Part shown: positions 2,891-62,269 of the stretch, in pieces
Layout of the letters: each line of letters opens with the position of its first letter
How positions within the stretch are numbered: the first letter of the stretch is position 1
From: Cyanidioschyzon merolae
Taxonomy: Eukaryota
Strand: one strand, 5' to 3'
NCBI GenBank assembly: GCA_000091205.1
Contig: AP006500.2
Length of the DNA: 64,000 nt
The notes under the pieces: model-generated
Database searches by the model: none
What the model was told of the DNA's origin: nothing
Seen by the model: only the letters and a program-made list of their open reading frames with translations
Made by a program: the position numbers and the translations under genes

Positions 2891-3357
2891 GAATGCGCAT
2901 GATCGGAGAACGCTGGCCTAAGTAAACGTTTTGTCCATGAAAACAATCGTAGCTTCAGCAACGGTGAAACCGGGGCTCGGCGTTCCGCGGGGCATGCTCC
3001 ACTGACTTGTCGAATATGCACGAAAATTGTCGAATTCATTGCTGATGACGCTGCTACTGTGTTGCAGTAGTACGCAGTGGACCTGTCTTCTGCGAGTCTC
3101 GAGAACATTTTGCACTCGAACGGAAACCTGTACGTTCGGACGCTTAGACCATTCGCGTCAGAGGATGCTTTTCAAAATGCATTCTTATCGGGAAAACTCG
3201 AACGTCTCCGCGCAATACCCAGCCATATTACCGGCACTAGCGTGGCCGATTGGCCCCCTTCGACGCCGCTGGCTACAGAGCACTAGTAACCGAGACGCTC
3301 TGGGCATCTCGCAAGCATCGCGTTGCCAATCGCATGGATAAGCTCTGGAATGCCAGC

Positions 3358-23605: not shown

Positions 23606-25222
23606 TTTATTTTTCATGGAAAGTATCCTGCATTTCAGCAACATATCAGCACGACGTACGCAACGATTCCTTCGAGCGTGCGTTCGATACAGAACCAGTA
23701 GACGCTTTGGAAACAGACGATATTTCCGAAGGTTGATTGAGGCGTTCAGATCTCGGTAAGGAAAGTGCTTGTGCGCTCGGTTGCTGCTGGTGGCAGCAGA
23801 CGCTAGCGAGCCGCTCACTTTCGATTTTTCGCGCCATTCGACTTTCGGTTAACGGTTCGTGCACCAATCTCGGACATCTGTCTCTGTTTCACGCACTGCT
23901 TACCGAGTTGTTTCAAGGTGCAAACCTGCCCATGATTCGTGGACGGCACCCTCAACGCATCGACGGGAATCGTGTAAAATCGATGACTGCACTTGTTGGA
24001 TACGCGCTTATCATAGAATCAGGAGTGCTGGCTCTGCGCGCTCCAGCATGTCCAGCGCCATCAGCTACGATGGGAGAACGCGAGTTATCAGCGATCTCCG
24101 TTTCCAACTCGAAGAATCATTTCGTGAGCACGCGCTCCTTGACGCGATGCTACCGAAAATCGTCGACGACCGCAGCGCGGTCTCATGGACGCACCCTGAA
24201 TACAGCGCAGAAAGACTCGCTTCTCTTAGATACTGTGCTGAGAGCGTCGATATGGATGCGGAAGTCGGTATTCCATTCACTGGCATGCCGCCGGACGCCC
24301 GAAGATAACGAGCCCCGGAAGAATTGAGCAGATCCGATTACTCTCCATCCAGGCGTTGGATCTCTCCTCCGGATGAAGAGGTACAGCGTTGGCCACGGGG
24401 AACCGGCCGTACCTGGAATCGACGATCACCACTGGTCGAAGCACGATTTGCGGAAGACCGGTGTTCGGGATGCGAAGTGCTCGTGCATTGATCCGTGAAC
24501 GCAAACATGACATTTGATCACCACGAAGACGCCTCTGACTTGACCGACGCAGGGAGCATAGGCAGGCACGAGGAGCGGCTCAACGCCAGTCTCAGCTGCG
24601 TAGTTCGTGACCGCTTTTGAATGAGAGAAGCCGACGTTGTCAAAGAGCACGGCTGACGAATGCGTTGCGGAGAAGCCGCAAACGTGCCTCGACCAAGGAT
24701 GTCGTATCGAATGATCCTGTTCGTTTTTTTTCGGATTCGTCAGCGAGCACACCACTGACCCACTGATTCCGGCTCGAGTCGTCGTCACGCGTTCTTGTCT
24801 CCTGTTTACCGACAGAACGCGGGCTTCTCTTTGTGTGCCCCCGTATAACGCTACCGCTTCTCTCTCGAGTCAGACGACTACCCGTGGATCCTGTACCAAC
24901 TGCTCGCATTCCAGGTCGACCCCGATCGCGTACTGATCAACGCGAGACGGTCTCCCGTGGACGCATGCGTTTCACTTCTTCCGGCCGAGTCTCTGCTTTA
25001 ACGCTCGCATCAACGGTACGGAAACTTTACATTCTGTGGCGTTTTCGTGGTGACCTGCCTTTGGAATCGTATAAAGTTGAATCGATTGACGACGAGATCT
25101 TCATGTAGATGGAGCTGGATATGTTCTCTTTCGGGTGCATGACGTCCAGGATACGGACGACGAGATGGACCATTCGTGTGCCTGCTGACGGTAATCCATC
25201 TGACTTGCATCAATAATTCCGT
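23606..25222 (+). repeat. Inverted-repeat copy A (~1.6 kb), nearly identical to the inverted copy at 34537-36146
   Basis: Six-frame ORFs in the two regions encode the same peptides on opposite strands: 23737-24327(+) vs 35435-36025(-) differ at 3 of 196 aa; 24833-25108(+) vs 34654-34929(-); 24426-24788(-) vs 34974-35336(+); 25010-25213(-) vs 34531-34752(+). Boundaries were placed where identity decays. Confidence 0.9.
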
Positions 25223-34536: not shown

Positions 34537-36146
34537 AAAACGGCATTATTTATGCAAGTCAGATGGATTACCGTCAGCAGGCACACGAATGGTCCATCTC
34601 GTCGTCCGTATCCTGAACGTCATGCACCCGAAAGAGAACATATCCAGCTCCATCTACATGAAGATCTCGTCGTCAATCGATTCAACTTTATACGAGTCCA
34701 AAGGCAGGTCACCACGAAAACGCCACAGAATGTAAAGTTTCCGTACCGTTGATGCGAGCGTTAAAGCAGAGACTCGGCCGGAAGAAGTGAAACGCATGCG
34801 TCCACGGGAGACCGTCTCGCGTTGATCAGTACGCGATCGGGGTCGACCTGGAATGCGAGCAGTTGGTACAGGATCCACGGGTAGTCGTCTGACTCGAGAG
34901 AGAAGCGGTAGCGTTATACGGGGGCACACAAAGAGAAGCCCGCGTTCTGTCGGTAAACAGGAGACAAGAACGCGTGACGACGACTCGAGCCGGAATCAGT
35001 GGGTCAGTGGTGTGCTCGCTGACGAATCCGAAAAAAAACGAACAGGATCATTCGATACGACATCCTTGGTCGAGGCACGTTTGCGGCTTGTCCGCAACGC
35101 ATTCGTCAGCCGTGCTCTTTGACAACGTCGGCTTCTCTCATTCAAAAGCGGTCACGAACTACGCAGCTGAGACTGGCGTTGAGCCGCTCCTCGTGCCTGC
35201 CTATGCTCCCTGCGTCGGTCAAGTCAGAGGCGTCTTCGTGGTGATCAAATGTCATGTTTGCGTTCACGGATCAATGCACGAGCACTTCGCATCCCGAACA
35301 CCGGTATTCCGCAAATCGTGCTTCGACCAGTGGTGATCGTCGATTCCAGGTACGGCCGGTTCCCCGTGGCCAACGCTGTACCTCTTCATCCGGAGGAGAG
35401 ATCCAACGCCTGGATGGAGAGTAATCGGATCTGCTCAATTCTTCCGGGGCTCGTTATCTTCGGGCGTCCGGCGGCATGCCAGTGTATGGAATACCGACTT
35501 CCACATCCATATCGACGCTCTCAGCACAGTATCTAAGAGAAGCGAGTCTTTCTGCGCTGTATTCAGGGTGCGTCCATGAGACCGCGCTGCGGTCGTCGAC
35601 GATTTTCGGTAGCATCGCGTCAAGGAGCGCGTGCTCACGAAATGATTCTTCGAGTTGGAAACGGAGATCGCTGATAACTCGCGTTCTCCCATCGTAGCTG
35701 ATGGCGCTGGACATGCTGGAGCGCGCAGAGCCAGCACTCCTGATTCTATGATAAGCGCGTATCCAACAAGTGCAGTCATCGATTTTACACGATTCCCGTC
35801 GATGCGTTGAGGGTGCCGTCCACGAATCATGGGCAGGTTTCCACCTTGAAACAACTCGGTAAGCAGTGCGTGAAACAGAGACAGATGTCCGAGATTGGTG
35901 CACGAACCGTTAACCGAAAGTCGAATGGCGCGAAAAATCGAAAGTGAGCGGCTCGCTAGCGTCTGCTGCCACCAGCAGCAACCGAGCGCACAAGCACTTT
36001 CCTTACCGAGATCTGAACGCCTCAATCAACCTTCGGAAATATCGTCTGTTTCCAAAGCGTCTACTGGTTCTGTATCGAACGCACGCTCGAAGGAATCGTT
36101 GCGTACGTCGTGCAGATATGTTGCTGAAATGCAGGATACTTTCCAT
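34537..36146 (-). repeat. Inverted-repeat copy B (~1.6 kb), reverse complement of 23606-25222
   Basis: See copy A. Nucleotide identity inferred from the peptide comparisons is about 98-99%. Confidence 0.9.
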
Positions 36147-37776
36147 GAAAGACTCAGAGGCCAGAAGCGAGCGCATTGGAATCCCGGCTGGAGCATACCA
36201 CTAGAATATCGTACGGTTCAGCAATGTAGATAGGCTATGGCGCCGTATACAACATCTCGGAACGCTTTTTCGTCGTCATTAGCGTATGACCATGGCACTC
36301 CAGTTTTCCATGTCACTGGGTATCTCAGGCGCAAGTCTTATCAGCCTCTCGAGAAACACGGACGCAGTCCGGAACCCGATTGACCGATACACTTGGCCGG
36401 CTATGGAGCAGACGCTTTCCGTTGCCTTATCAGGCCAAATTACAGTGTACAACTCTGTCATGCCGCCTGGTTCGATTGCTCGAGTACGGCGTCGGATTAC
36501 CGCTTCTCGGAGCGCTGGCTAAGAACATGCAGTGTTCGTACATTGAAGCAATTGCCCTGACGACATTCCAGGGTCGCTGGGAAGGCGATGCATTTTAGAA
36601 TGGTCGCACAATATGCAGCTTGACAAGGTTCCGCGTCAATGTTGCGGTCGGCGTTCGAATGCGTTATGCGGTGTCCTGCTCCTCGAGTCATGCACGCTTC
36701 TTTCTATCCATGCCCTGGACGCTTCTCCAAACCACAGCTAGCGCTATGCGGTCAAGCGCCTCAAAGCGTCCGATCGTATTCATCTGGTTTGGCGCTACTA
36801 GGGTCCACAGAAACGCAAGCATTCAGATGAACTGAGAAAAAAGCAGCGCCTGGCAGCACAAGCTGCACGCTCATGGACGCTGCATTCACGCAGTGACCAC
36901 GTAACCAGCGAGAGACGGATATGCACATACAGACGCGGGACCGTCCAGAATTTCGGGTACATGTACGCAAACATGCACCGACCGCTTCGTATCGAAAACA
37001 CCCAAGGACTAGAGCCTTCCGTCGTTTATCAAACCGGGGTGTGATGACCCACGACCGAAACGCACGCTTTCTGCTCGCCGTAAAACGCGCGTGGAACAAC
37101 TCCATAGCTGTCGAGTGTCCAGCTACATACCTGGAGCCCAGATAGCAACTCGTGAAGCCGTCAATACGAACTCCAATCGGGGTTCAAAATCTGCGAACAT
37201 GACCATTAGATTTCGATGCCCGTTCATCGGTGCTCACTGCTGACCTCGATTCCCGCCTAGTCGCTGTCCCACTGTTCCAGATTCTCCTCCTGATTTCTCC
37301 ACAGCGACCGAAGCTCCATGCGATCCGGGGCGGCTGGCGTGTACCAAGGTCTGCATAGCTTCTGTGGAACGCTTCCGCTAGACATGCATCGTTTGTATGC
37401 TCTCCTGTGTGCCTCGGGAGTCGAAGCTGTTGAGGGTAAACTCGACTATGAAAGGCACCATGATTCTGCGGTTGCGAAGCAGCGCATACTCGATACGTTC
37501 ATTGTCGAGTAATCGGCTCCGATCGAGTTACTTGCGGGGCGGCATGCCGATACTTTTTCGATGAATCAGCACCGCCGCGCTTTTCAAAGTAGCGACCTGT
37601 ACCATGATGCACTGCACTGCCCATAGCGGACAAACTTTCGGCCATGGCTTCCGGAATGACCATCATCCTCTCCGACACAGGAGCCAGGACTGCTGAATCC
37701 AAGCACGACGCTCAACCAATCCACCCGAGTACGCTACCGGGGTACCGTGCTTCGCATTCGCCCCCCTGTAAACTGT

Positions 37777-39375: not shown

Positions 39376-39790
39376 TCGCTCCCAAACGGAATCAGTTTAT
39401 AGTGTTATGGACACGATGTAGACACCTCGGAATAAGTTATATTTTTGGACTTCACTGCTCCGAACGGAATCAGTGTGTTGTATCATGGATACCATCTAGA
39501 CACCTCGGAATAAGTTATATTTTTGGACTTCACTGCTCCGAACGGAATCAGTGTGTTGTATCATGGATACCATCTAGACACCTCGGAATAAGTTATATTT
39601 TTGGACTTCACTGCTCCGAACGGAATCAGTATGTTGTATCATGGATACCATCTAGACACCTCGGAATAAGTTATATTTTTGGACTTCACTGCTCCGAACG
39701 GAATCAGTGTGTTGTTTCATGGATACCATGTAGAAACCTCTAAATACGTAATACTTCTCGACTTCACTGCTCCAAATGCGCATCCCAAGG
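39376..39790. repeat. Minisatellite, 78-bp unit x ~5.3 copies, AT-richer than its surroundings, ending ~100 bp upstream of the ORF at 39887
   Basis: Unit cactgctccgaacggaatcagtgtgttgtatcatggataccatctagacacctcggaataagttatatttttggactt. Full copies start at 39452, 39530, 39608 and 39686, with diverged copies at both ends. Confidence 0.9.
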
Positions 39791-50429: not shown

Positions 50430-53400
50430 TTAGGTAGTTGCCGGTGCGTGTCGACGCTCCGTAAAACTCAGTGCATCGTCCGCTGCAATGAAGTCCTCTA
50501 GATCTGCATATGGTTCATCAGCACCCTCTTGTCGGAGCACTTGATCAATGTACGCGTTGCGACTGCGCAGATAACATACGCGACGGGTCGACGCTCTGGC
50601 TTTGGTGCATGCTACAGGTGCCTGCTCCCAGTCGGTAAAGATGATCTTCAGCTCGCCGGTAACTAGCCCAGGAGCTGGCGGTGGTGTCGATTTTTGCGTC
50701 GGTGCGTGGTTTGCGAGCCAGCCACAAACCGCGTCCTGGAGCGCCTTGGGCACGTCTTGAAGTTTCTGCTGCAACCTCGCGAGACTGGCGTCTAGCTGGC
50801 GACACTCGGATTCAAATTTCTCCAAGCAGTAGACGAAGCGGGCACAGGCCTGGTTCACGGATCGCGCCGAGGCGCAACGGGCCGGCAGTGCCTCGCGTAT
50901 GGCGTCAGGGCGTATCAGGCGGGCAACTCGTTGTGCAGATGCTCGGGTTCGCTGGAGGAACTCCAGAGCCGACGCCCACTGCACAAGTGGGGGCGCTTGG
51001 TCAGCGTCCGTGAACGACTCCATTTCGGGGGTCTCGTCTCCGCGAGGCCGCTTGCCGCGCTGCTTCACGATACGATCGAGTTGTCTGCGGATCATTTCGC
51101 TCACGCCCTGGAGATAGTGAAGCGCCTGTTGCGAAACAGATGCAAGGCGCATGAAAAGCGCCAGCGGTACCGCTACCGTGCCTGGCGCGAAAAACGACTC
51201 CAAAAGCGTTACAAGTTGTTGCACAGACCGCAGCTCCTGGTCGTTAATCGTGGATGCGCGAGCAACTTGCGTTTTGACGCGAACGCGAGGTAAATGATCG
51301 GCACCAAACTCAACCACAGCCCAGAGTGCAGCCATTCTGGTTTCCTTTGACGCCTGAGCCAGCAGTCGCAGCAATGCGGGCGTGTCTTCGTTGGGCGCTT
51401 CACTTGACGGATCGGCCGACGAACGACACTGCAGGATCAGGTTGGTGCACAGATGGAGCGCGCGCTTCGAGCCTAGCACCAGCAGCAACGGTCGCAAAAG
51501 CAGCCGATGAACGCTAACCTGTGGAATATCGAAATCGAATAAAATACCAAGGAGCTCGTTCTCGATGTACTGGAGCGCCTGCGACTGCGAGTTGTCTTCG
51601 ACACCGCTGCTCGCGGATGCCTGGGACCATTCTCGCGACTGACAAATCAGATGGGCGATCAAGTCCGCATAGATGGAAACGAGTTTCACCGTGAGACCGC
51701 GATGAAAGTCTGCCCGGAGGCGACGCGTCAGGTAGGCGGCAAGCCATTCCAGGCCTGGCGCCTGCGTCAACTTGGTGCTGTCCTGGATCGCGTACAGTTC
51801 GGAGAAGTTGTTCGTGAGCATCAGCCGCAATTGACTTTGTACCTGCGGTACCGCCAGGAACGCGGCGACCTGATGGACAGGCCATTTGGGCAAAATCGCA
51901 GCGATAAAGTCCAAGGCGTGCGTTTTGAGCCAGAGCTCTGCAGACGCCGGACGACACTGAAGTTCAATCGAATCGCGAACTACTGAGGAGCACGCGAGAT
52001 CGAGCGACAGGAACGCGCACTGCAGGGAGGTTTTTCCTGCTGGCACTTCATCGGACGCATTGGCGGGAGCGATAACGAGCCTGCGCAATGCCTCCACGAT
52101 TCCCTGGTATAACCAGCTAGGCCAGACACGATTGTTCACAAAGTAGTCACCTGTACCGCGAAGATCCCAGAAGTATGTTTCAATGTCCAGATGACGCCGA
52201 AGGATTCGAAAGAGCGATGCAGCGCCGTGCGCAGACCTGCATACCTGAAGCAACTGAATCGCTCGAGCTGCGCTCAGCGCCGGCACAATACGTACCCAAG
52301 CGAGCATATCATGCATAAAACCTCCAGCTTCACCGTCTTGTCGGGAAGAGGCATAGGCTAGGTCAGAGGCTGCCTCGGCTGCACTCACCGTGGCCGGTGT
52401 CCACAGCACGATCCGACGGGGATCTTGAAGAACCTCTCGAGCGACCGAACGAGCACCAGTGACGTAATCCTCTCCCGCGGTTGGTTCATGATCGGTTTCT
52501 GGAACGACATGCTGCTGACGTTGACGCGTGACAGCGTTCGCGAGAATGGGCAATATGGCCTCACACAAGTGCATCAGCTGACCATAAGTCTCGAGCAGAG
52601 TCTGCTGTTCTGTCTGCGATGAGCGGCCGACGTCCAGCAAGGTTTCGTAGCATGTGGCGAGCATTTTCAAGCGACTATCCGCGACTTGAATTCGTGTCAG
52701 TGGAGCGAGCCATTGCTCGGTAGATGCCTTCCGTTCCAAGAGGAGGTCGAGAGCCAGCATCCGCAAAACTGTCGGCGCATTTGATAGATCACTGACGAGG
52801 GTGCTCAGAAAGGAACGCAGGAAATTTGTGGAAACGTCGGCCTGGAATGAAGTCGCGGCCTGTTGCGATGTCATGGCGGGTGTACATGCCGCATCACCGG
52901 CTTCCGAAGCATATCCGGTCAATGGCACTGCATGGATGCAACGCAGGAGTTCAGGCAGCGCCTCCGTTGCGACACCAGCTGCGTGGAAGCATCGATGAAG
53001 ATCCAGATGCGGTGTCGAGACCAAAGTTGATCCCCGGGGCGTTTCCGTGGACACTGCCTCGATGCATCGGGCAAGAGATTCCCTCCAGACACTGATGGTA
53101 GCGTGGCGAAGCACCCGACCTCGCAGGGCGCTGCCAATGGCTAACAATATTTCAGCTCGCAGCGGCTCCGGCGCCATATTCAACGTCCTCAGGAGGAGCT
53201 GGCTGGTCTCGATTTCCGCAGACTCTGTCAGATACGGAGACACAAGAAAACAGGCGAGTCCATGCGCAGCGATGCGTCGTGCACGAATGGCCCGCGAACA
53301 AGCCAGCTTACGGAGAAAGATGAGCAATCCGTCACCCATAGGCTGCCAGAGCGCTCCCAGCGGTGCCAATGCCGCTAGAATGCGCTTTGCGAGAGATATC

Positions 53401-55019
53401 GGAAACTCGATCATGAGCTCACGTAACCAGACGAGAACGCTTTCGCTCAGATCTCGAAGATGCACGCGGTATGCGGGTGAGCTCGCGATGCGTTCGATTA
53501 CAGTACAGTATGCTGCTCTGGTGGCGAGCAGATGCTGCGATTCTGCGATGGCCGACAGACATGCTGAAAGAATCTCCTTCCGTGCACTGCTGTGGTGTCC
53601 AAAGAGCTCCGTGAGCACGTGGACCGCGCACCGCTGCAGGAAGAATGACCGCGACGAGATTTGCTCGTGCGTACGACGGCGTCCACGTCGACGAATGGCC
53701 AAAGGTCGATCCGGGCGTCCCGTCTGGGGGCAGCTGTTGCCGCTCCTCAGGCGCTCGGAAAAGTTGCGAATCTTCTGAGCTGGGGTCAGTTGCATCCACT
53801 GGAACGCGAGCTCTGCGATCACTGGCGCAGCGTGCTCGAGCCCCGGAAGCCTGATGATCCGAGAGAGAATCGCCTCCGCCGAGCACGCGGATGTGCTCGG
53901 TGGAGCATTTTCGGGAGCTTCCGCGATCGCAGTTTCCTCTTCATGTCTCCAGAGCAGTGCAGCTGCCTGCTCCCGGGCGAGATCTGCGATGGCTTCGATT
54001 TCTGCCAAATGGAAACAGAGATGAAGATCAATGCTCAAGCGAGCCGCTCGTGATAACGTTCCCGGTATCAGGGCATTCACCTCCGTGGCAATCGAAGCGA
54101 GCAGCGCCTCGCCGAGCGCAGGCTCAGCATGAGCCTCCATCTCGACAATACAGAGGATATCTGGGAGCGCTTGCTCTGGTGCCGCTGCCAGAACGAAACG
54201 AAGGACGCAAGACCAGTCCCGTGCCGTCTCCAGATCGTAGCCAGCTGATTGCCACCACCAGTCAATGCGGAGCACTTGCTGCAGAATGCGTACCAACAGC
54301 TGCGAGAGTGCTGTCAGCGTAGCGCCGTCACATGACCACACGGCGTCCTGCATGAGCTTGCTCTGGACTTGTCGCTCGGTCGTAGTGACCTGCTCCCGAA
54401 TCGAAGTTGGATCGTTGCAGAGAAGCCATCGCTCCCGTAGCTCCATGTATATCTGCAGCATCGGCAGGGCGGTGTCACCGATCCACGGGAAACACAACAA
54501 GTAGCGTGGTGAGTCACTCAGGATTCGGTTTATCCACTCTGCGCTCGCCAAGCACATGGTGCGCAGGCAGCAGGCGTACAGGCATATTCTCAGACGGTGT
54601 GCCTCAGAGTTCAGCTTGGAGGTGAGCTTTGGGTGACAACGCTCACTGCCGTCTGGAAGCTTCAGTTGTGAACTAGAAGCGGGAGCTTGGCATGCAGGGT
54701 CGTCAGCGAGACTGCTTGCGACAAACCCCCGCAGCCGCTGCAACAGCGGCAAACACTCGTGACTCTGAAGTAGACCTTCCTTGACCCACCGCGCCAAACG
54801 CTGCAGAAGCAACTCCGCTGCTTCAAAAAGAGATTGCAGCGTAACGCCTCCTTCACTCGCAGCAACGTTCCCACGCAGGCCCGCAGACGCAACCTGGGCG
54901 CAGTTACAGAGCGTCTGCGCTGCTTCTACAAGCACCTGCCTGTACTTTTCGGGACAGAAGCCTTCTGGTCCCTGTTGCATCAATTCCTGGATATTGTCCA
55001 GAGTTGTCGATGACGGCAT
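50430..55019 (-). CDS. Large (1529 aa) predominantly alpha-helical protein of unknown function, possibly HEAT/ARM-like solenoid
   Basis: One uninterrupted 4.6-kb ORF, Leu/Ala-rich with repeated amphipathic helical segments. No catalytic motif was recognised. The C-terminus is acidic (DLEDFIAADDALSF). Confidence 0.5.
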   Translation of the reverse strand: MPSSTTLDNIQELMQQGPEGFCPEKYRQVLVEAAQTLCNCAQVASAGLRGNVAASEGGVTLQSLFEAAELLLQRLARWVKEGLLQSHECLPLLQRLRGFVASSLADDPACQAPASSSQLKLPDGSERCHPKLTSKLNSEAHRLRICLYACCLRTMCLASAEWINRILSDSPRYLLCFPWIGDTALPMLQIYMELRERWLLCNDPTSIREQVTTTERQVQSKLMQDAVWSCDGATLTALSQLLVRILQQVLRIDWWWQSAGYDLETARDWSCVLRFVLAAAPEQALPDILCIVEMEAHAEPALGEALLASIATEVNALIPGTLSRAARLSIDLHLCFHLAEIEAIADLAREQAAALLWRHEEETAIAEAPENAPPSTSACSAEAILSRIIRLPGLEHAAPVIAELAFQWMQLTPAQKIRNFSERLRSGNSCPQTGRPDRPLAIRRRGRRRTHEQISSRSFFLQRCAVHVLTELFGHHSSARKEILSACLSAIAESQHLLATRAAYCTVIERIASSPAYRVHLRDLSESVLVWLRELMIEFPISLAKRILAALAPLGALWQPMGDGLLIFLRKLACSRAIRARRIAAHGLACFLVSPYLTESAEIETSQLLLRTLNMAPEPLRAEILLAIGSALRGRVLRHATISVWRESLARCIEAVSTETPRGSTLVSTPHLDLHRCFHAAGVATEALPELLRCIHAVPLTGYASEAGDAACTPAMTSQQAATSFQADVSTNFLRSFLSTLVSDLSNAPTVLRMLALDLLLERKASTEQWLAPLTRIQVADSRLKMLATCYETLLDVGRSSQTEQQTLLETYGQLMHLCEAILPILANAVTRQRQQHVVPETDHEPTAGEDYVTGARSVAREVLQDPRRIVLWTPATVSAAEAASDLAYASSRQDGEAGGFMHDMLAWVRIVPALSAARAIQLLQVCRSAHGAASLFRILRRHLDIETYFWDLRGTGDYFVNNRVWPSWLYQGIVEALRRLVIAPANASDEVPAGKTSLQCAFLSLDLACSSVVRDSIELQCRPASAELWLKTHALDFIAAILPKWPVHQVAAFLAVPQVQSQLRLMLTNNFSELYAIQDSTKLTQAPGLEWLAAYLTRRLRADFHRGLTVKLVSIYADLIAHLICQSREWSQASASSGVEDNSQSQALQYIENELLGILFDFDIPQVSVHRLLLRPLLLVLGSKRALHLCTNLILQCRSSADPSSEAPNEDTPALLRLLAQASKETRMAALWAVVEFGADHLPRVRVKTQVARASTINDQELRSVQQLVTLLESFFAPGTVAVPLALFMRLASVSQQALHYLQGVSEMIRRQLDRIVKQRGKRPRGDETPEMESFTDADQAPPLVQWASALEFLQRTRASAQRVARLIRPDAIREALPARCASARSVNQACARFVYCLEKFESECRQLDASLARLQQKLQDVPKALQDAVCGWLANHAPTQKSTPPPAPGLVTGELKIIFTDWEQAPVACTKARASTRRVCYLRSRNAYIDQVLRQEGADEPYADLEDFIAADDALSFTERRHAPATT

Positions 55020-55199
55020 TAATCAATAGGAGACTCTTTGACGCCTTGCGTCTGAAGCGCTATGCGTGCTTTGCGTGCAGGGCGTCACGAAGCATGCATC
55101 TGCATGCGATGCGTTTCGCGCGTTGCTGGCGCGTTTGCGCTTGCCGCGAAAACGATCGATTGCTGCGGAGGCGCGCGTTCTGGAGTCTCCTGGGTTGAT

Positions 55200-57850
55200 T
55201 ATCCTAGCGTTTTAACTTACATGTATTCCACTGCGAGGTGCATGTAATCAAAAGCGTTTTCGCGGTTTATTACGGATGCTTTCGAAGTAGGTTCATTTGA
55301 AGGAAGAAATACACTATGAGAAAGGTGTGAACATGGACTTTGGGGATCCTGGAGGGCCTTCATCTCCGGGTTCCGGAAAAATATGAATAAACAGTTTCGA
55401 GCCCAGAGGAACGAAAGGTGACGAAGAAGCGAAGGGGGCAGGTCAAACGTCAAGAGCTTCGGGAGAAACGACACTAATACCAGATTGTAATGAAATCATA
55501 TCTTCGAGGCCATATTTGGGACGCGTACGAGCCCAAAATGCGAGAGGCTATCAGAAAGCGTGCCGATTCGTGTTCGAGCAGTTTTCGCTACGTTTTCCTA
55601 GGACTGATGCATTTAGTAAGGAAGACGTATCGCGACGCGAAGGATATCAAAACATTCGAGGTTCCGGAAGAATTATTCAACAGGACCTTTATTCGGCACG
55701 TGATGAATGGCGCAAGGGAAGCGTCGAGGAGGAATGAGCGAGTGTATGACCTCCACGAGAATCACGCTGAATACCGCTTCAACGGTACTCGATACAGGGT
55801 TGACATGCGTATTTACGAATACAGAGCGATAGAGTACCTCCCGAACCTAAAGAATCGTATGATCGTGAACCTCAAACGTTTCATGATACGCTCCATCTTT
55901 ACGCTCTACCCGGGCCTATCTCGCAAATGAATAGAGAGCATCATCAATGGGATGACAAACGATCGCCAGCATGAACAGGAGATCGAATTCGTCGACGAAA
56001 GGACATAGCACAGGAGTACGAATGAAGCTTCTGTAATGCGTGCGGCTATTCAAGAGCGCCGTGCGGTCTTGGGGCTGATCAATCAAGCAGAAAAGGTATC
56101 AGATATAAGAAAAGATGAAGAAAGATGTCATCTCCTCATCCTACGCTATTTCGTGTTCCTGAACCGAGAACCCGAACGCAAGGCGGAGATGGAGCTGGGT
56201 GTGGGAAAAATGGAGAGTGGGAGAGACAGAAGGCTGTGCTGCTGGAGAAGCGCTTCAACGCTGTACCGTTGTGCACCATCAAGCCACATTTTGTGACTAT
56301 CGATTCCGGCGTTCGCTACGGCATCATGAAGGAGATCTGTCCGGAGTTCAATGTAAGGAAGACAGCGTTCACCAGTGAAAACCGGACAACGCACTGGAAG
56401 AATATCTTCGATTTCAAGCGTCTCAAAACAAACAAGGGGAAGAAATTCGCTCGGATGATCGAAACAGATGGGGTAGCCATGTGTGTACACTGTCGGCGAT
56501 TGAAGGCAGATCGTCCAGTTCCGTCCTCCGCTTCGTCCGTGACGAATTACGACGATGAGTAGGAGGCGGACCCAGCCACGCAGGAGGTAGAGGATACTGA
56601 CTTTGTCGTTGGCGCGGACCCTGGGAATACGAATATCATAACCATCGCAGTACCCAAGCGTGCGGAGGATGGTAACGATCGCAATTTATGCCAGAAAGAC
56701 ATACATCAGTTAAACCTCTCACGAGCGAGATATCACCGAGAGTCGGGAGTACTTAATGCGAGGGAAAAATGAGACATGAAATGCAGGAATGCAAGAGCAC
56801 CTTGAAGCTATGAACCAGATGACGAGCCGCGGAGCAGACTTTCAAGCTTTCAGGAATTCATGGAAGTTCGCGTTGCTCATTGGGATGCGCTGTGGAATGA
56901 GTATGCAAAGCCCTGGTGGGCTCGTTTGCGTATGAATCTATACGGTGGGAGGCAGCGGGCGTTCGCAAACTTTTTCAATCAGTTGAGCGCCTCGAATGAG
57001 GATGAAATTCAGAGGCTCGGTGCAGCGTACGGAGCAGGGCGCTGGAAGACCAAAAAGTGACTATGCTAGCACCAACGATGAGAACGTACAAGGAGTGTGC
57101 AAGGCGTTTCGTTACGATACCAATAGATGAGTTTCGAACATTTTATACACACCATGAACTGGGGTGTACACTCCAGAGAGTGGAGATGGAAAAGTTCCAG
57201 CGGAGCCATGAGGATATAAAAACGTACGGAGCGCTGACGGTAGAGCAAATGGAGAGGAGGGCGAGACTTCGAGGACTACTTGCATTAGTAAGTACAACCA
57301 ATGATGGCAAGAAACGTATGGAATTCGTGAACTGTGACTTTAATGCCGCTATCAATATAAGGAAATGTGCGGTGCTGGAGACGAGACCTCCAGAGTTGAC
57401 ATGGGAGAATTTTGTGGGGCAACCTCTCAAAGTGGAATTATATGAGAAAAAATTGGAATCAGTAGTATGCGGCCGGTCCAAAAAGACTGCAAGGCGTCTG
57501 CACGTTACTAAGAGACGTCTTGTCTAGGGCGGGTTTCTCGCCACTACTCTACACTTCTGGTCGCAACGTTTGTCTTTTGAAAGGCGTTTGTTGTCGGTGA
57601 TGGCGGTGTTGAGTACTAGAATTCCCCGTGTGAAAGCCAGGAGGCAGCTTTGTCAGGTTGACGTGCGTTTTCCCAAGGATCAGGACGCTGCGACTTGGAC
57701 GAGTATTCAACGTCTCCTGGTCTAAACGTTGCGCACACGCACACGACGCCTCGCCGAGCTACCTTTCCTATGCAGCAGCATCTTCCCTAGAGTTTGCCGG
57801 GCTTGGGCTTTAATCAGGTGCGCTACGGCCTGAACGCCTTCTAATGCGGA
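55200..57850 (+). mobile_element. AT-richer island surrounding the TnpB/Fanzor-like ORF; putative relic of the host transposon or OMEGA-type element (boundaries not defined)
   Basis: Base composition shifts visibly to lower GC versus the flanking genes. It contains the Fanzor-like ORF plus ~300 bp of 3' non-coding sequence where a guide (omega) RNA would be expected. No TIRs or TSDs were identified by eye. Confidence 0.35.
55490..57527 (+). pseudogene. TnpB/Fanzor-like RuvC nuclease ORF (IS605 OrfB family homologue), frame-disrupted or intron-containing; Fanzor1-like in length
   Basis: Segments read in three frames: 55490-55930 (f2) N-terminal domain; 56125-56766 (f1, one TAG at 56563) containing [20 protein letters not shown], the RuvC-I G.DPG..N motif; 56860-57060 (f1) RQRAFANFFNQL, like the R.DF.HK.S..L helix of TnpB; 57057-57527 (f0) VTIPIDEFRT, RuvC-II-like, and EFVNCDFNAAINIRKCAV, the RuvC-III D.NAA.NI signature. 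The zinc-finger cysteines between RuvC-II and RuvC-III are mostly lost. Confidence 0.6.
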
Positions 57851-58359
57851 AGAAGCCTACCCAGGGGGCGTACGCCTCTCGCACTGCTACCTCGGCGAGC
57901 GCAACTGCCGCTTGCTTTCAGGCTGCAAACTGCCACGGGGTAACGAGGTTGCCTGCCCTCGTCGTGCCCTGCCTTTATCGTAAGGATAATTCGATATCAC
58001 TTCAGCAGCCAAGAACAAAAGGCGCTCATAGGAACCGGTGGGAAGTCTCTCCAGGCACTACCCGGGTCGACGCGCGCCGACATTCCCCACGAAAGCAGGG
58101 CGCACACACACGTACGCAGCACTGAAGCAGCTGGTTGTCTCGCTCTGGCGTTTGCAACGCTGTGATGCTCGGTTTTGACGGGTATCGCTCGACGGAGGCT
58201 GTGCAGCAGCCAACTGAACATGCGCATCGGGGCTCGTCGCTTGAAATCATGTCAAGGTATGCAAAAGTTTAGTGGACAGCAAGATCAGCGAGCATTCCTT
58301 CGACCTCGAAAATATATCTAACTTTCTGGAGACCCATGAGATTCATGTCGCTCCCTGGT

Positions 58360-59358
58360 TTACGAAAACGGACCTCTACCACTGTGTCTACTTGACGACA
58401 ACGTATGCTCGCTTTCTTCGCGTTCATGGCACGCCCCAAACGTTCCGAATGCTTGGAGGTTCGCGGAGAACTCGGGCATCACCCTGATGATGTCTGCGTC
58501 GGTGCCCGGCGCCAGTCGCGCCTTGTCGAGGACGCAGCGCTCCACGTGCAGGCCTGCACGCGGCTCCGCTGGATCCATAACGAGGAACGCATCGATTTCC
58601 GGACAGTATTCCAGGACTAAGACATAGTGACCTTGGAAATTGGAATCATCTAAACTCCGAAACGCATGAAATAGTTGCTCCCGAATCCATGTGAGCACCT
58701 TGGATGACCATCGAACCGGTAACGAACAGCTGTACCTCAAGTGCCGCCTGTCGACGAGAACAATCCACACAGGACTGCTACCGGGCCTGACGCTAGCCTT
58801 CGAGACGGTCAAAGATGGGGCTTTATAGCCGCAGTCTGGATGTGGTGCCCGATACGCAGCAGGGATGAGCGCCATTGTCGGCAACAGCGTCGAGAAAACC
58901 GGTATCCCGAGTCGCTGTGCGAGCACAAAACGGCTTTGAACACGAGCCGCATCCGACTCAATCGCTTTACGATAGAAAGGCCAGTCTTTAAAGGTCGGAT
59001 TAATGCCTGCGAAAGTAGTCCAGAAGGCTACGTTGAGGAAGCCAGTCTTGTGCAGCAGGAGAACGAGGTCGATCGTCCACGTAGACCTCGAGCCGGCGAG
59101 CTCCTCGAGTCTGGATCGCTCTGGGACAGGACGACAAAAGTATCGGAAAACGTTTTCTACACATGTGATGCCGCAATCCCAGTCCGCGCGTTGGGTCAGT
59201 GGAGCCAAAACTCGGTGGCTGTGACGCTGGCAGGTGCTCGCTGTTGCGAAGCGTTCGCGACCTCTGGCAGAAACGTTTCCGCTTCGGTTGCGTGCGGAAG
59301 TCATCAGCGTTTCGCCATACGGGGTATGCAGCGTGCTCCTGACCTGCAACAACTGCAA
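58360..59358 (-). CDS. GUCD1-like protein (guanylyl-cyclase-domain-containing 1 / AtGC1-like papain-fold protein), 332 aa
   Basis: QRADWDCGITCVENVFRYF matches the conserved WDCG(L/I)AC motif near the N-terminus of GUCD1/AtGC1 homologues. Later His/Asp-containing blocks are consistent with a C39-like peptidase fold. Confidence 0.45.
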   Translation of the reverse strand: MQLLQVRSTLHTPYGETLMTSARNRSGNVSARGRERFATASTCQRHSHRVLAPLTQRADWDCGITCVENVFRYFCRPVPERSRLEELAGSRSTWTIDLVLLLHKTGFLNVAFWTTFAGINPTFKDWPFYRKAIESDAARVQSRFVLAQRLGIPVFSTLLPTMALIPAAYRAPHPDCGYKAPSLTVSKASVRPGSSPVWIVLVDRRHLRYSCSLPVRWSSKVLTWIREQLFHAFRSLDDSNFQGHYVLVLEYCPEIDAFLVMDPAEPRAGLHVERCVLDKARLAPGTDADIIRVMPEFSANLQAFGTFGACHEREESEHTLSSSRHSGRGPFS

Positions 59359-60785
59359 GGAAGCCGTATGAGCGTAGGCTCTATGACTTAAGTCTCAAGC
59401 TAAGGACACTGCGTAGCGCCACGTGACTCATGCCCGCTGAAATGCAAACGATGGAAAACGGGTTGTTTCGTGGCTGCGGGCAGCGACATCTCTAGTCGGC
59501 GCCAGCAAGAACAGAGCAGGTGGTGGGCTCTCTCTCTCTCTGGACGATGTCCGCAGCGGCGCTTTCGGCACCGTCATAAATGCAAACTGGTGGATCTTCA
59601 TCCGGAGGATTTGCATAAGATGCCAAGTTCCTCGATGGTAAGCCTGGTTGTGGCTTCCGGAACACTGGAGCTGGGAGCGGAATCGTGGGTACTGAAATCG
59701 ACGTCGGTAGCAATGGCGAGCTCGGGGAACGCCAGTCAAAGTGAGAGATCGGATGCCTCAGAAAAAGATCCATCAACGTGTTGAGAACGAAGCGCGGAAT
59801 ATTATCAAGCAGCTGCAAGATTGCTCTGCAGTACATGAATCAACAGTGGCGCTCGGTTCGACGTCCATAGTTACGGGAGGTTCCAAGCAATCATTTTCGT
59901 AGAAGAGACATTTTTGGGCAACCGCTGTGCACCTATGCGATGGAGCAATCTTGGCGCTCTGGAGCACACAGATGCTGCTGATGCTGCTCAAATGCTCGAA
60001 ACGTTCAGACTTCTTTTCACGTGCTCGCGCTGCGCTGGCTCCGACGTTTTCGGCCAATGTCTTTAGACCACGCCCTGACCGTTTTGAAGATCCCAGTTGG
60101 TATCTTGCACTGCACAGCAGTCATTCCAATCGATGCCTACATATCCTTCGATGCCCTTGGGACTGAATCCAAGCGTGTGAACGGACTCGCCAGGAGTCCT
60201 CGAAAATTCACCTAAATGTGCGTATTTATGTTCATGTCCATGCGATTGCCGCTCAAAGCTGCTGGCTCCAGAGCACCTGCGCGCCAAGGAGTCCCAAACT
60301 GGTCTCGCTTCCACTCACAAGCTGTGCTGTATGTCCGCTATAGGAGGCTACGCTGGATCTGCCGAGCAACGCTTCCCATGGTGAGTACTGTTGTGCAGGT
60401 GGTAGCGCTTGGAAACTCCATACGAGCAGAGGACCTCCATTCGCCGATTGTTGGAACCATTCGTTCACCCGCGGGCGTCTGTCGGACTCAGGTTTTGTAC
60501 ACCATGAGGGTACGCCAGCTCGTTGCTGGACACCCGCATACGGCGTGTGAGTATCTGCTCATCAACTGATCACAGGGATCCTAATCGCTCCGCTGGACGC
60601 CCGGATGAAAGCAGATCTTCCCGATTCGAACACCAGAGGCAATTTCTGTCTGTGTCGGACGGGATATGCTCGACTATGCATAGACTCGCCCGAAGGTATA
60701 TGAGACACGCGCGAGCTACCTCAATGATATGGATAGAGGCGCAGCGCTCAGCCGATCATCATATGCGAGCAAAAAAAGAATTCGA

Positions 60786-61110
60786 GCAGATTTCCAAGCA
60801 TGGAAGCCAACGCAAGACAAGAACAGATAAGAGCGATCTTTTTAGAGCAGTAATCAAGCACTAGCAGATTTCCAAGCATGGAAGCCAACGCAAGACAAGA
60901 ACAGATAAGAGCGATCTTTTTAGAGCAGTAATCAAGCACTAGCAGATTTCCAAGCATGGAAGCCAACGCAAGACAAGAACAGATAAGAGCGATCTTTTTA
61001 GAGCAGTAATCAAGCACTAGCAGATTTCCAAGCATGGAAGCCAACGCAAGACAAGAACAGATAAGAGCGATCTTTTTAGAGCAGTAATCAAGCACTAGCA
61101 GATTTCCAAC
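60786..61110. repeat. Minisatellite, 78-bp unit x ~4.2 copies
   Basis: Unit gcagatttccaagcatggaagccaacgcaagacaagaacagataagagcgatctttttagagcagtaatcaagcactag. Copies start at 60786, 60864, 60942, 61020 and a partial one at 61098. The copies look essentially identical. Confidence 0.9.
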
Positions 61111-62269
61111 CGTATGTTTTAAAGCAGAAAAAGTCAAGAGCGCCACGACGCCGTACATGCTCTCGCACGACCCAACCCCGAATCTGGATAAAGCCTCAGC
61201 CCCAAAGATCGTGCAAGTATTGGTACGGTGAGTGAAACGGAAACGTACTTAAACCGTGGAGGTTTGAGTATTAACCTATGTGCAGACGCCTCCCAGCTTT
61301 TTTCGACCGGAAGCCAGTGGTCAGTTTTGGTTTATCCAGGCACCATACGAGCATCAGAGGCTGCCCCATAACATTAGATTGCCTAATTCCTTCAGCACTC
61401 GTCTTCAGCACCGAAAAATCGTGTGATATTGATGGCAATGTCGGAGTCTCGGATCACGAACTCCTTGTGCGCATTGCCGCTGGTTGAACGCATCAATGCG
61501 AGGATTGCTAGAACTCGCGCGCTCTGTGCGACTACAGTCTCGTTATCGCCCAGTGGGGCAAACACCATTTCTTGCCTGTCCGCCCGCTTCTTCTTCGTCT
61601 TCGGCACTAGCTCTTCATCGCTCGATGCTCGGCGAGAAGAGCGTTTTTCCTTATTTTTACCGGCATTCGGCGACGTTGACCCCTCCTGGATCCCCGACAT
61701 TCATGTCCATACTTTTCCCTTGGATTCTTCATTTCTTCAAACGGACACATTTCGAACACATCTGCTACAAGCCGCGAACATGCATTTGATAACACGCACC
61801 CGGATGCGGAACACCATTGAGGTGAACGACTTGAGTGAAAACGCTCACGCGGGACATCCGCCGAGGCGCTCTAGCCGACGCCCTCAGCGGTACGTCAAAG
61901 CCGTTCTTTCTCCGTGTTGCATCTGCACCAGCGGTGTGAGCGCTATCGGGAGTAGGCGCGGCAGGCACTCGGTGCACGATAGAATATATGGAACGACCAG
62001 TATATCCTAAAGGAAGTATGGGTCATGAAACATGAAGTTAGGGTTCATCATGATGGACACTTGCTCGATTGCCATAATCCATCCCCCAAACTGGAATCCC
62101 TGCTCAATGGAAACGTTTTGTCGAACAAAAGCAAAAGAATCTGCCGAGGCGCCCTCGAAGCGAGGCTCGCGTGCTGTGCCCTGCGCAACGTGTCCAGTGC
62201 GCCATCGTTCCAGATATCTCCAGATGCAGCGGTACTAGGTGTCGTTTTTATTTTGGCTAGAAACGGATC

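Follow-up and report, generated by a model that had tools for sequence, protein, structure and literature searches.

Positions 55243–57599 of the window, the 64,000-nt stretch of Cyanidioschyzon merolae 10D chromosome 18 analysed here, are almost certainly a decayed, 5′-truncated copy of CMe-1A, a Fanzor1-bearing transposon of this red alga. Seven ORFs of the window are identical to C. merolae 10D proteins. The family is already known, as CMe-1A was described from the C. merolae genome in 2013, together with its consensus and protein; the preliminary description of the locus had given the host element as unknown. We searched the window by blastn with the published 3169-bp CMe-1A consensus, taken from supplementary file 2 of Bao & Jurka 2013. 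Positions 55243–57586 align to consensus positions 827–3169 in a single HSP, with 83.0% identity over 2350 bp.

55243–57599, + strand: CMe-1A copy, decayed and 5′-truncated (consensus 827–3169 plus ~13 nt)

Consensus positions 1–826 are missing from this copy, and the DNA upstream of 55243 gives no alignment. The missing part includes the 635-bp module that CMe-1A has in common with TE-N2_CMe. At the other end, the homology of other copies (84 loci, L002–L085) stops at 57524–57599, in most cases at 57552–57599, and the information content drops to background within 10–13 nt past the GGCG at 57586. Element sequence extends ~60–72 nt 3′ of the stop codon, and the DNA beyond ~57599 is unique host DNA. 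Of the 300-bp 3′ flank earlier put forward as the site of an omega RNA (57528–57850), the stretch from 57528 to ~57599 is element and the remainder is host DNA. The AT-richer island seen at first inspection is real: the element has a GC content of 48.7%, against 56.1% for the window, and is the lowest-GC stretch of that size in the whole window. In addition, its + strand is purine-rich (57%). A search for terminal inverted repeats (TIRs) and direct repeats found no inverted repeat linking the two element ends, the matches being short and of the kind expected by chance; the published element is likewise without TIRs.

The intact protein of the CMe-1 family is inferred to be a D-E-D RuvC nuclease with a Fanzor1 fold, as judged from aligned motifs and a predicted structure. 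The split RuvC motifs lie on the + strand at 56611–57365, all three in the order first reported, with the helical segment in its place between the first two.

56611–56649, + strand: RuvC-I, 13-residue motif; catalytic Asp codon GAC at 56617–56619; aligns to DPGR of PpFz1
56950–56985, + strand: helical segment RQRAFANFFNQL between RuvC-I and RuvC-II, located as a motif in the sequence
57117–57134, + strand: RuvC-II, IPIDEF; catalytic Glu codon GAG at 57129–57131; aligns to DEFRTS of PpFz1
57336–57365, + strand: RuvC-III, (C)DFNAAINIRK; catalytic Asp codon GAC at 57336–57338; aligns to nRD of PpFz1 and SpuFz1

These motifs are identical or near-identical to those of published CMe-1, and the helical region is kept in the family consensus as GKQRAFANFFNQL. 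The catalytic residues are retained across the clade, the RuvC-I Asp and the RuvC-II Glu in 86 of 86 members each and the RuvC-III Asp in 83 of 86. The Arg of the family RD motif, which precedes the RuvC-III Asp, is a Cys in the relic.

A search of the PDB with a diverse family profile (A3) matches PpFz1 (E = 5.5e-21), SpuFz1 (E = 9.4e-14) and GtFz1 (E = 6.4e-9) and returns no other matches. The preliminary description had read the feature as a decayed TnpB/Fanzor RuvC nuclease in a mobile element and had staked that reading on a RuvC profile match; such a match exists at the family level (E = 5.5e-21 to 6.4e-9), to solved Fanzor1 structures alone, and the fold agrees. The more direct form of the search it proposed came back empty, as the repaired 679-aa translation has no match in Pfam, NCBIfam or PDB (phmmer). 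A PDB search with a profile of close homologues (A1) also gave no match, so that the diverse profile was needed. Because the direct searches are empty, the Fanzor link rests on the family profile, the fold searches and the published assignment. The fold was modelled on a near-intact relative, P0001 (49–77% amino-acid identity over tblastn segments, 52% by blastp), not on the relic. A first AlphaFold2 run on a shallow alignment was unusable (pLDDT 40), and the model of P0001 has a pLDDT of 82.8 and a pTM of 0.81. Fanzor1 structures take the first seven places among its Foldseek matches (E = 3.5e-16 to 2.7e-13, TM up to 0.74), and Cas12 variants follow.

The structures matched by the profile are those of SpuFz1, PpFz1 and GtFz1 (PDB 8gkh, 9cf0 and 9cer; Saito 2023; Xu 2024), which, like the CMe-1 family, are eukaryotic and transposon-borne. 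Their D-E-D split RuvC motifs align with those of the CMe-1 family and the fold matches (TM 0.74), whereas sequence identity is just 12–15%. The CMe-1 family differs from them in having no C4 zinc finger and in carrying a disordered 26-aa tandem-repeat insert directly before RuvC-I. Furthermore, the three proteins have been characterised by experiment, while the CMe-1 nuclease is known from sequence and predicted fold. Two 78-nt tandem arrays elsewhere in the window (39382–39771 and 60758–61147) were considered as copies of the 26-aa repeat and rejected, being non-coding and unrelated in sequence. Bacterial TnpB (IS200/IS605, e.g. ISDra2), an RNA-guided nuclease to which the eukaryotic Fanzor1 proteins are homologous, is alike in catalytic architecture, but too distantly related to be picked up directly: the TnpB domain PF07282 (Cas12f1-like TNB/OrfB_Zn_ribbon) stays sub-threshold in relatives of the relic (E = 0.0023–0.23) and gives no match in the relic, and the zinc ribbon ligands are absent from the CMe-1 clade.

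The largely missing zinc finger had been listed with the frame changes as a sign of either an intron-containing gene or decay. Between RuvC-II and RuvC-III, two CxxC pairs of a C4 zinc finger occur in none of the 86 clade members, the median being one Cys, and the published intact CMe-1 protein has THHELGC...EKC where the finger is expected. The C4 zinc finger belongs to the motifs by which Fanzor1 was defined in 2013 and was called strictly conserved by the same authors, who yet list CMe-1 as a Fanzor1 (Bao & Jurka 2013, PMC3627910); it is best taken as typical, not universal. Since homology and fold are decisive for Fanzor1 membership, we read the absence as a clade-specific loss, not as decay of the relic.

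CMe-1A was described as a non-autonomous DNA transposon of ~150 copies, each ~80% identical to the consensus, without TIRs and with the Fanzor1 protein CMe-1 as its sole gene (Bao & Jurka 2013, Mob DNA 4:12, PMC3627910). A reading of its mobility that we take seriously, while leaning somewhat against it, is that CMe-1A is a non-autonomous Helitron2-type element, its hairpins and adjoining T-run being DNA signals for a rolling-circle transposase acting in trans and not an RNA scaffold. This reading concerns the mobility of the family and is compatible with the locus being a dead CMe-1A copy. The T-run and the 3′ hairpin were tested on family members, the copy at 55243–57599 having no 5′ end. 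In 9 of 13 independent full-length 5′ junctions, TTTT lies within the final 10 nt of the flank, against a background of 2.4% (P ~ 2e-12). Consistent with a Helitron2 carrier, TIRs are absent, the 3′ ends are constant while the 5′ ends are variable or truncated, a hairpin stands at the 3′ terminus, and the closest protein relatives include volvocine green-algal proteins. In particular, CRe-1 to CRe-3, the Fanzor1 elements of Chlamydomonas reinhardtii, belong to Helitron2, and Chlamydomonas Helitrons related to them show TTTT insertion, 3′ hairpins and 5′ truncation (Bao & Jurka 2013, PMC3627910). CMe-1A has in common with the CRe elements the TTTT-adjoining insertion, the lack of TIRs, the 3′ hairpins and the frequent 5′ truncation, and the clade recovered by the profile search includes volvocine proteins, e.g. 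Tetrabaena socialis PNH08370.1, with the zinc finger lost alike.

Several observations weigh against a Helitron2 carrier. For the asymmetric terminal inverted repeat by which Helitron2 is defined, the best match in CMe-1A is 8 nt (p = 0.12, not significant), and such a repeat is not demonstrable. A RepHel gene was not seen in the window or in 84 metagenome loci. To our knowledge, no Helitron transposase is known for C. merolae. The T-run could be the first bases of CMe-1A itself rather than its target, and the extra stability that G·U pairs give the hairpin on the + strand speaks rather for RNA or for one particular DNA strand. Furthermore, CMe-1A was given no class by Bao & Jurka, the authors who had defined Helitron2 (PMC3627910). 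A retroposon whose T-run is the poly-A tail of the opposite strand was rejected, because the 3′ end is constant on the Fanzor strand and the T-run end is variable, the opposite of LINE-like 5′ truncation. If true, the reading of CMe-1A as a Helitron2-like passenger would supply the transposon class that was not assigned in 2013.

The 3′ end of the element bears on the omega-RNA question. By analogy with characterised Fanzor1s, an intact protein would bind an RNA transcribed from the 3′ terminus of the element and cleave DNA that matches the guide next to it. The guide RNA of bacterial TnpB is encoded at the right end of the transposon; in characterised systems the source of the omega RNA is the transposon end, and an overlap with the stop codon can occur (Saito 2023, PMC10432273). 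If ever present in CMe-1A, an omega RNA would overlap the 3′ end of the ORF and stop at ~57599.

57492–57599, + strand: 3′-terminal region, candidate omega-RNA scaffold and/or transposition signal, degraded in this copy (from copy alignments and folds)

Better-preserved copies have three hairpins, one over the last codons, one from the stop codon and a terminal one of 17–19 bp with G·U pairs; these pairs give the terminal hairpin a higher stability on the + strand than on the complementary strand. Over the terminal 64 nt of 51 copies, the + strand has a mean folding z-score of −0.82, the − strand one of −0.20 and the flank one of +0.05. RNAalifold predicts zero consensus pairs from 51 3′ ends; as the two hairpin variants differ in pairing register, one alignment is unable to carry a single structure. 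For a hand-drawn three-hairpin structure, the covariation cells number 53 where 42 are expected, and 72.7% are paired compared with 71.6% in shuffles; as this barely exceeds the column-shuffle expectation, we do not claim covariation. A scan of 54900–58300 against Rfam (E ≤ 1) found no match.

It is very improbable that, with its protein gene dead, this copy still yields from 57492–57599 a stable omega-like RNA, with a guide starting at ~57600, for use in trans by the protein of an intact copy. Characterised systems do make omega RNA from the transposon end (Saito 2023, PMC10432273), across copies the + strand of the terminal hairpin region exceeds shuffles and flanks in folding stability, and some copies are still intact according to Bao & Jurka 2013 (PMC3627910). 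However, the 3′ region of this particular copy folds no better than shuffles (z = −0.28, and z = +0.37 for the terminal 64 nt), the copies show weak covariation, the Rfam match is absent, and a fully intact ORF was found in none of the 84 related metagenome loci (L002–L085).

For the family as a whole, a more far-reaching proposal joins these strands, and we offer it as an unlikely though not negligible one. CMe-1A would travel as a rolling-circle passenger of the Helitron2-like kind, inserting behind T-runs; the RNA partner of its zinc-finger-less Fanzor1 would come from the final ~110 nt of the element, which are rich in hairpins; and a consensus-restored protein of 734–784 aa together with that RNA would form an active, possibly heat- and acid-tolerant, RNA-guided nuclease. 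C. merolae grows at ~42–45 °C. What is new here lies at the level of the family and is of modest use to those working on Fanzors, namely the zinc-finger loss, the T-run adjoining full-length copies and a terminal hairpin with greater stability on the + strand.

The coding part of the copy was aligned both to the published consensus and to one that we built from 40 copies, the latter forming one intact ORF of 784 aa.

55327–57527, + strand: Fanzor1 (CMe-1) pseudogene
56125–56562, + strand: mid-protein (pre-RuvC) piece; Pfam DUF8286 (PF26935); HMM positions 272–388, E = 8.7e-66

In a tblastn search, the published 734-aa CMe-1 aligns in three segments and three frames (aa 22–302, 64%; aa 294–578, 69%; aa 577–734, 85%), giving 64–85% identity over aa 22–734. 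Consistent with this, the family HMM matches eight stop-to-stop pieces within 55478–57524, all colinear (E = 5e-84 to 5e-7), well beyond what chance would give. The relic begins at ~55327, upstream of the coding start at 55490 proposed before, and there the ATG start has been replaced by GTG (55327–55329). The natural stop codon, TAG, is at 57525–57527. The preliminary description had noted at least three changes of reading frame, and the actual count is higher: there are five uncompensated frameshifts (+1 at ~55388, −1 at ~56204, −2 at ~56763, −1 at ~56847 and −1 at ~57049) and one compensated +1/−1 pair at 55586/55599. In addition, six premature stops start at 55388, 55475, 55928, 56006, 56560 and 56777. 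These lesions, together with the lack of the first 826 bp and of the start codon, set the relic apart from the published element. With its start codon lost and its frame broken by frameshifts and premature stops, the copy is unable to make protein, and it has no function of its own. In annotation, 55243–57599 is best masked as a CMe-1A fragment and not given as genes.

Between the two origins first offered for the frame changes, an intron-containing gene or a pseudogene relic, the second holds, and no observation speaks against it. That a working Fanzor gene is split here by introns, with the frame changes as exon junctions, has next to no likelihood: introns do occur in eukaryotic Fanzors, CRe-1 to CRe-3 having 5–10 exons (Bao & Jurka 2013 supplementary table, PMC3627910), but the frame changes in the relic are 1–2-nt indels with no intervening sequence, no insertion against either consensus exceeds 4 nt, which excludes introns, the HMM coordinates run unbroken over the junctions, the premature stops lie in well-aligned coding sequence behind a GTG start, and the published CMe-1 gene has one exon, listed as '734 (1)' (PMC3627910).

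As to how the pseudogene arose, the copy very probably either landed without its first 826 bp in the interval from CMR449C to the following gene or was truncated at that place. Neutral drift since then has very probably brought it to ~83% identity to the consensus, with loss of the start and gain of the frameshifts and stops. A bacterial gene caller reported the relic as several separate ORFs; the piece at 56125–56562 is catalogued in Pfam solely as DUF8286, by a precomputed match to the ORF in an identical metagenome contig.

Two further pieces of CMe-1A lie in the window, both on the − strand.

61280–62122, − strand: second copy of CMe-1A, more diverged and with internal deletions (consensus 5–255, 826–970, 2840–2968 and 3056–3086 by blastn; HMM and tblastn matches)
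2626–2828, − strand: CMe-1A fragment (consensus 84–282; blastn, 76.8% over 203 bp)

Consensus positions 84–282, to which the shorter piece corresponds, are within the 5′ module common to CMe-1A and TE-N2_CMe (Bao & Jurka 2013, PMC3627910).

The preliminary description had proposed, from the sequence, a decayed TnpB/Fanzor-like RuvC nuclease, and the Fanzor-like motif set that it reported is confirmed in place. Positions 55478–57524 (+ strand) contain eight stop-to-stop pieces in three frames that match an HMM derived from homologues (alignment A2); the pieces are colinear over HMM positions 30–736 (E 5e-84 to 5e-7), and all four reported motifs are located. The relic occupies an intergenic position between CMR449C and the next gene. 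Its GC content is 48.7%, versus 56.1% for the window, the minimum among all same-sized window stretches, bearing out the AT-richer surroundings noted earlier, and its + strand is purine-rich. Seven long window ORFs are identical to annotated Cyanidioschyzon merolae 10D proteins. BAM82621 (CMR449C, FANCI-like) and BAM82620, which is annotated 'deoxyribonuclease' and carries Pfam domains of XRN 5′-3′ exonuclease, are exact matches of window ORFs.

Features of the relic locus
50430–55019, − strand: CMR449C, the gene before the relic
55327–55329, + strand: relic start codon, ATG changed to GTG
~55388 (+1), ~56204 (−1), ~56763 (−2), ~56847 (−1), ~57049 (−1): uncompensated frameshifts
55586/55599: compensated frameshift pair, +1/−1
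55388, 55475, 55928, 56006, 56560, 56777: first positions of premature stops in the family frame
56611–56649, 56950–56985, 57117–57134, 57336–57365, + strand: the four reported motifs
57525–57527, + strand: natural stop codon TAG
58360–59358, − strand: next gene after the relic

A single Fanzor1 family, CMe-1A, is listed for C. merolae, with ~150 copies each ~80% identical to a ~3 kb consensus, some still intact; it is described as being without TIRs, with TSDs undetermined and class unknown, and its 5′ 635 bp are common to TE-N2_CMe (Bao & Jurka 2013, PMC3627910). The supplementary files of PMC3627910 give the 3169-bp CMe-1A consensus and the 734-aa CMe-1 protein. The relic aligns to this consensus with 83.0% identity across 2350 bp, all in one HSP (consensus 827–3169, window 55243–57586), and to CMe-1 in three frames, with residues 22–302 at 64%, 294–578 at 69% and 577–734 at 85%. 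Both alignments identify the relic, at the level of sequence, as a 5′-truncated CMe-1A copy; family, consensus and protein have thus been known for C. merolae since 2013. In addition, metagenomes (JGI samples Ga0078972, Ga0080006, Ga0207433 and others) hold Cyanidioschyzon-like genomes in which CMe-1A copies number in the hundreds, a relative is encoded by 386 metagenome stretches, and one metagenome contig is identical to the window throughout the compared stretch. A fully intact ORF is found in 0 of 84 metagenome loci with other copies (L002–L085), but their majority consensus, unlike the individual copies, has one.

Lesions were scored against the published consensus and our own consensus of 40 metagenomic copies, which gives back one intact ORF of 784 aa. 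The frame changes had been read as either introns or pseudogenisation, and only the latter holds: compared with either consensus, the relic has no insertion longer than 4 nt, the CMe-1 gene as published consists of a single exon (Bao & Jurka 2013, PMC3627910), and therefore an intron-containing Fanzor gene is excluded. The relic keeps all three catalytic codons; despite their survival, the gene, as read from its lesions, cannot be expressed.

Searches of Pfam, NCBIfam and PDB with the conceptually repaired translation of the relic give no matches. A large protein collection contains 51 relatives at 42–73% identity, all metagenomic and mostly fragments, many bearing the precomputed label PF26935 (DUF8286). 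A profile of these relatives retrieves 1494 cluster representatives (E <= 0.001), many full-length at 600–700 aa, and one relative among the matches is a protein of Tetrabaena socialis, a volvocine green alga. A profile of 86 diverse members has exactly three PDB matches, all Fanzor1: Parasitella PpFz1 (E=5.5e-21), Spizellomyces SpuFz1 (9.4e-14) and Guillardia GtFz1 (6.4e-9), with the DPG, DEFRT and RD.NAA motifs aligned to the corresponding RuvC motifs. Furthermore, an AlphaFold model of P0001, the closest near-intact relative (94-sequence alignment; pLDDT 82.8, pTM 0.81), has Fanzor1 structures as its best seven Foldseek matches in PDB (E 3.5e-16 to 2.7e-13, TM <=0.74), followed by Cas12 variants at E >= 5.6e-3. 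Family profile and P0001 fold both match Fanzor1, and therefore the earlier reading of a decayed Fanzor-type nuclease, which had been staked on a profile match, is supported; of its two alternatives the pseudogene is the right one, and three of its details need amending. PF26935 is the sole Pfam label on these proteins (window 56125–56562; loci L001, L002, L003); DUF8286 covers the pre-RuvC middle portion of a protein that is in fact Fanzor1.

The missing CxxC...CxxC zinc finger had been taken as decay, which is not the case: it is absent also from intact CMe-1, whose segment from RuvC-II to RuvC-III reads DEFRTSYTHHELGCTLQRVEMEKCQR (Bao & Jurka 2013, PMC3627910), and two CxxC pairs between these motifs occur in 0/86 clade members (alignment A3), where the median Cys count is one. 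The same proteins keep the catalytic D, E and D in 86/86, 86/86 and 83/86 cases. The A3 clade (window 57129–57338 region) contains CMe-1 plus volvocine algal proteins, and on this alignment zinc finger loss is a trait of the CMe-1/volvocine clade, in conflict with the 2013 definition, in which the C4 finger is called strictly conserved (Bao & Jurka, PMC3627910).

Homology of the window to the 84 other copies ceases at 57524–57599, mostly 57552–57599; 3′ ends are sharp in depth profiles, and past GGCG at 57586 information content reaches background in 10–13 nt. Judged by these boundaries, only ~60–72 nt after the stop codon are element sequence and 57600–57850 is host sequence, so that an omega RNA, if there was one, would not fill the proposed flank 57528–57850. 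In better-preserved copies the last ~110 nt fold as three hairpins, the first inside the last codons, the second starting at the stop codon and the third a terminal stem of 17–19 bp that includes several G.U pairs and is retained in two or more sequence variants whose pairing registers differ. One good copy has z=−3.8 (+ strand) and −2.5 (− strand), another −0.74, and the window copy, whose hairpin structure is degraded, −0.28. Averaged across 51 copies, z of the last 64 nt is −0.82 (+ strand) and −0.20 (− strand), with flanks at +0.05 (Wilcoxon p=0.0017 and 3e-5). A pair-count test scarcely exceeds column shuffles, RNAalifold finds no consensus structure for the 3′ ends and Rfam no match for the region; the case for an RNA structure under selection is no more than moderate. 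Characterised Fanzors derive their omega RNA, which may overlap the stop codon, from the transposon end (Saito 2023, PMC10432273), and the location of the 3′ hairpins would therefore fit a putative omega RNA.

We found no TIRs of CMe-1A and no transposase near the relic, matching the published description. Full-length copies start right after 4–8 T (loci L005, L009, L013, L027, L055, L060, L062, L063, L073): TTTT lies in the last 10 nt of flank at 9/13 independent full-length 5′ junctions of the metagenome loci, against a background of 2.4% (P ~2e-12). Several T-run flanks are GGCGTTTTT, similar to the element's own 3′ end GGCGTTTG. The 3′ end is constant across copies and 5′ ends are variable or truncated, which, with the T-run junctions, goes slightly beyond the 2013 description. 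The nearest protein relatives include green-algal ones; Chlamydomonas Fanzors of such type sit on Helitron2, and related Helitrons there insert after TTTT (Bao & Jurka 2013, PMC3627910). Taken with the 3′ hairpin, these features make a Helitron2-like rolling-circle element the best hypothesis for the carrier, albeit a tentative one, since the search for the asymmetric terminal repeat that is diagnostic of Helitron2 gave no significant match (8 nt, p=0.12).

The window holds further relics and repeats, the second CMe-1A copy being located by blastn with the published consensus.

Other relics and repeats
2626–2828, − strand: TE-N2-like 5′ module fragment, matching consensus 84–282
23612–25222 and 34540–36150: inverted repeat arms, 1611 nt, 99% complementary
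39382–39771 and 60758–61147: non-coding tandem arrays, five 78-nt units each
61280–62122, − strand: second CMe-1A copy, internally deleted
61869–62122: 5′ module fragment (consensus 5–255) within the second copy

The second copy retains consensus segments 5–255, 826–970, 2840–2968 and 3056–3086, and its 3′ end lies ~130 bp from the array at 60758–61147. The CMe-1A 5′ module also occurs in the separate element TE-N2_CMe (Bao & Jurka 2013, PMC3627910), and module-like fragments are found near many CMe-1A copies in metagenome loci. The inverted repeat encloses 9.3 kb of host genes, a sulfite reductase flavoprotein gene among them, and each arm carries a very divergent Fanzor1-like relic (motifs IPVDALR and RDLNASINLRK) that is ~26% identical to CMe-1 in protein and does not match the CMe-1A consensus at the DNA level. 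These arm relics may represent a second, older Fanzor1 family, beyond the one counted in the 2013 survey. The two tandem arrays, each rendered by the repeat finder as four overlapping 156-nt register copies, are unrelated in sequence. Directly upstream of RuvC-I, the CMe-1 family ORF has 78-nt (26-aa) tandem repeats whose number varies: P0001 has four, the window copy and the published consensus roughly one each. The 78-nt period is thus common to the non-coding arrays and the ORF repeats.
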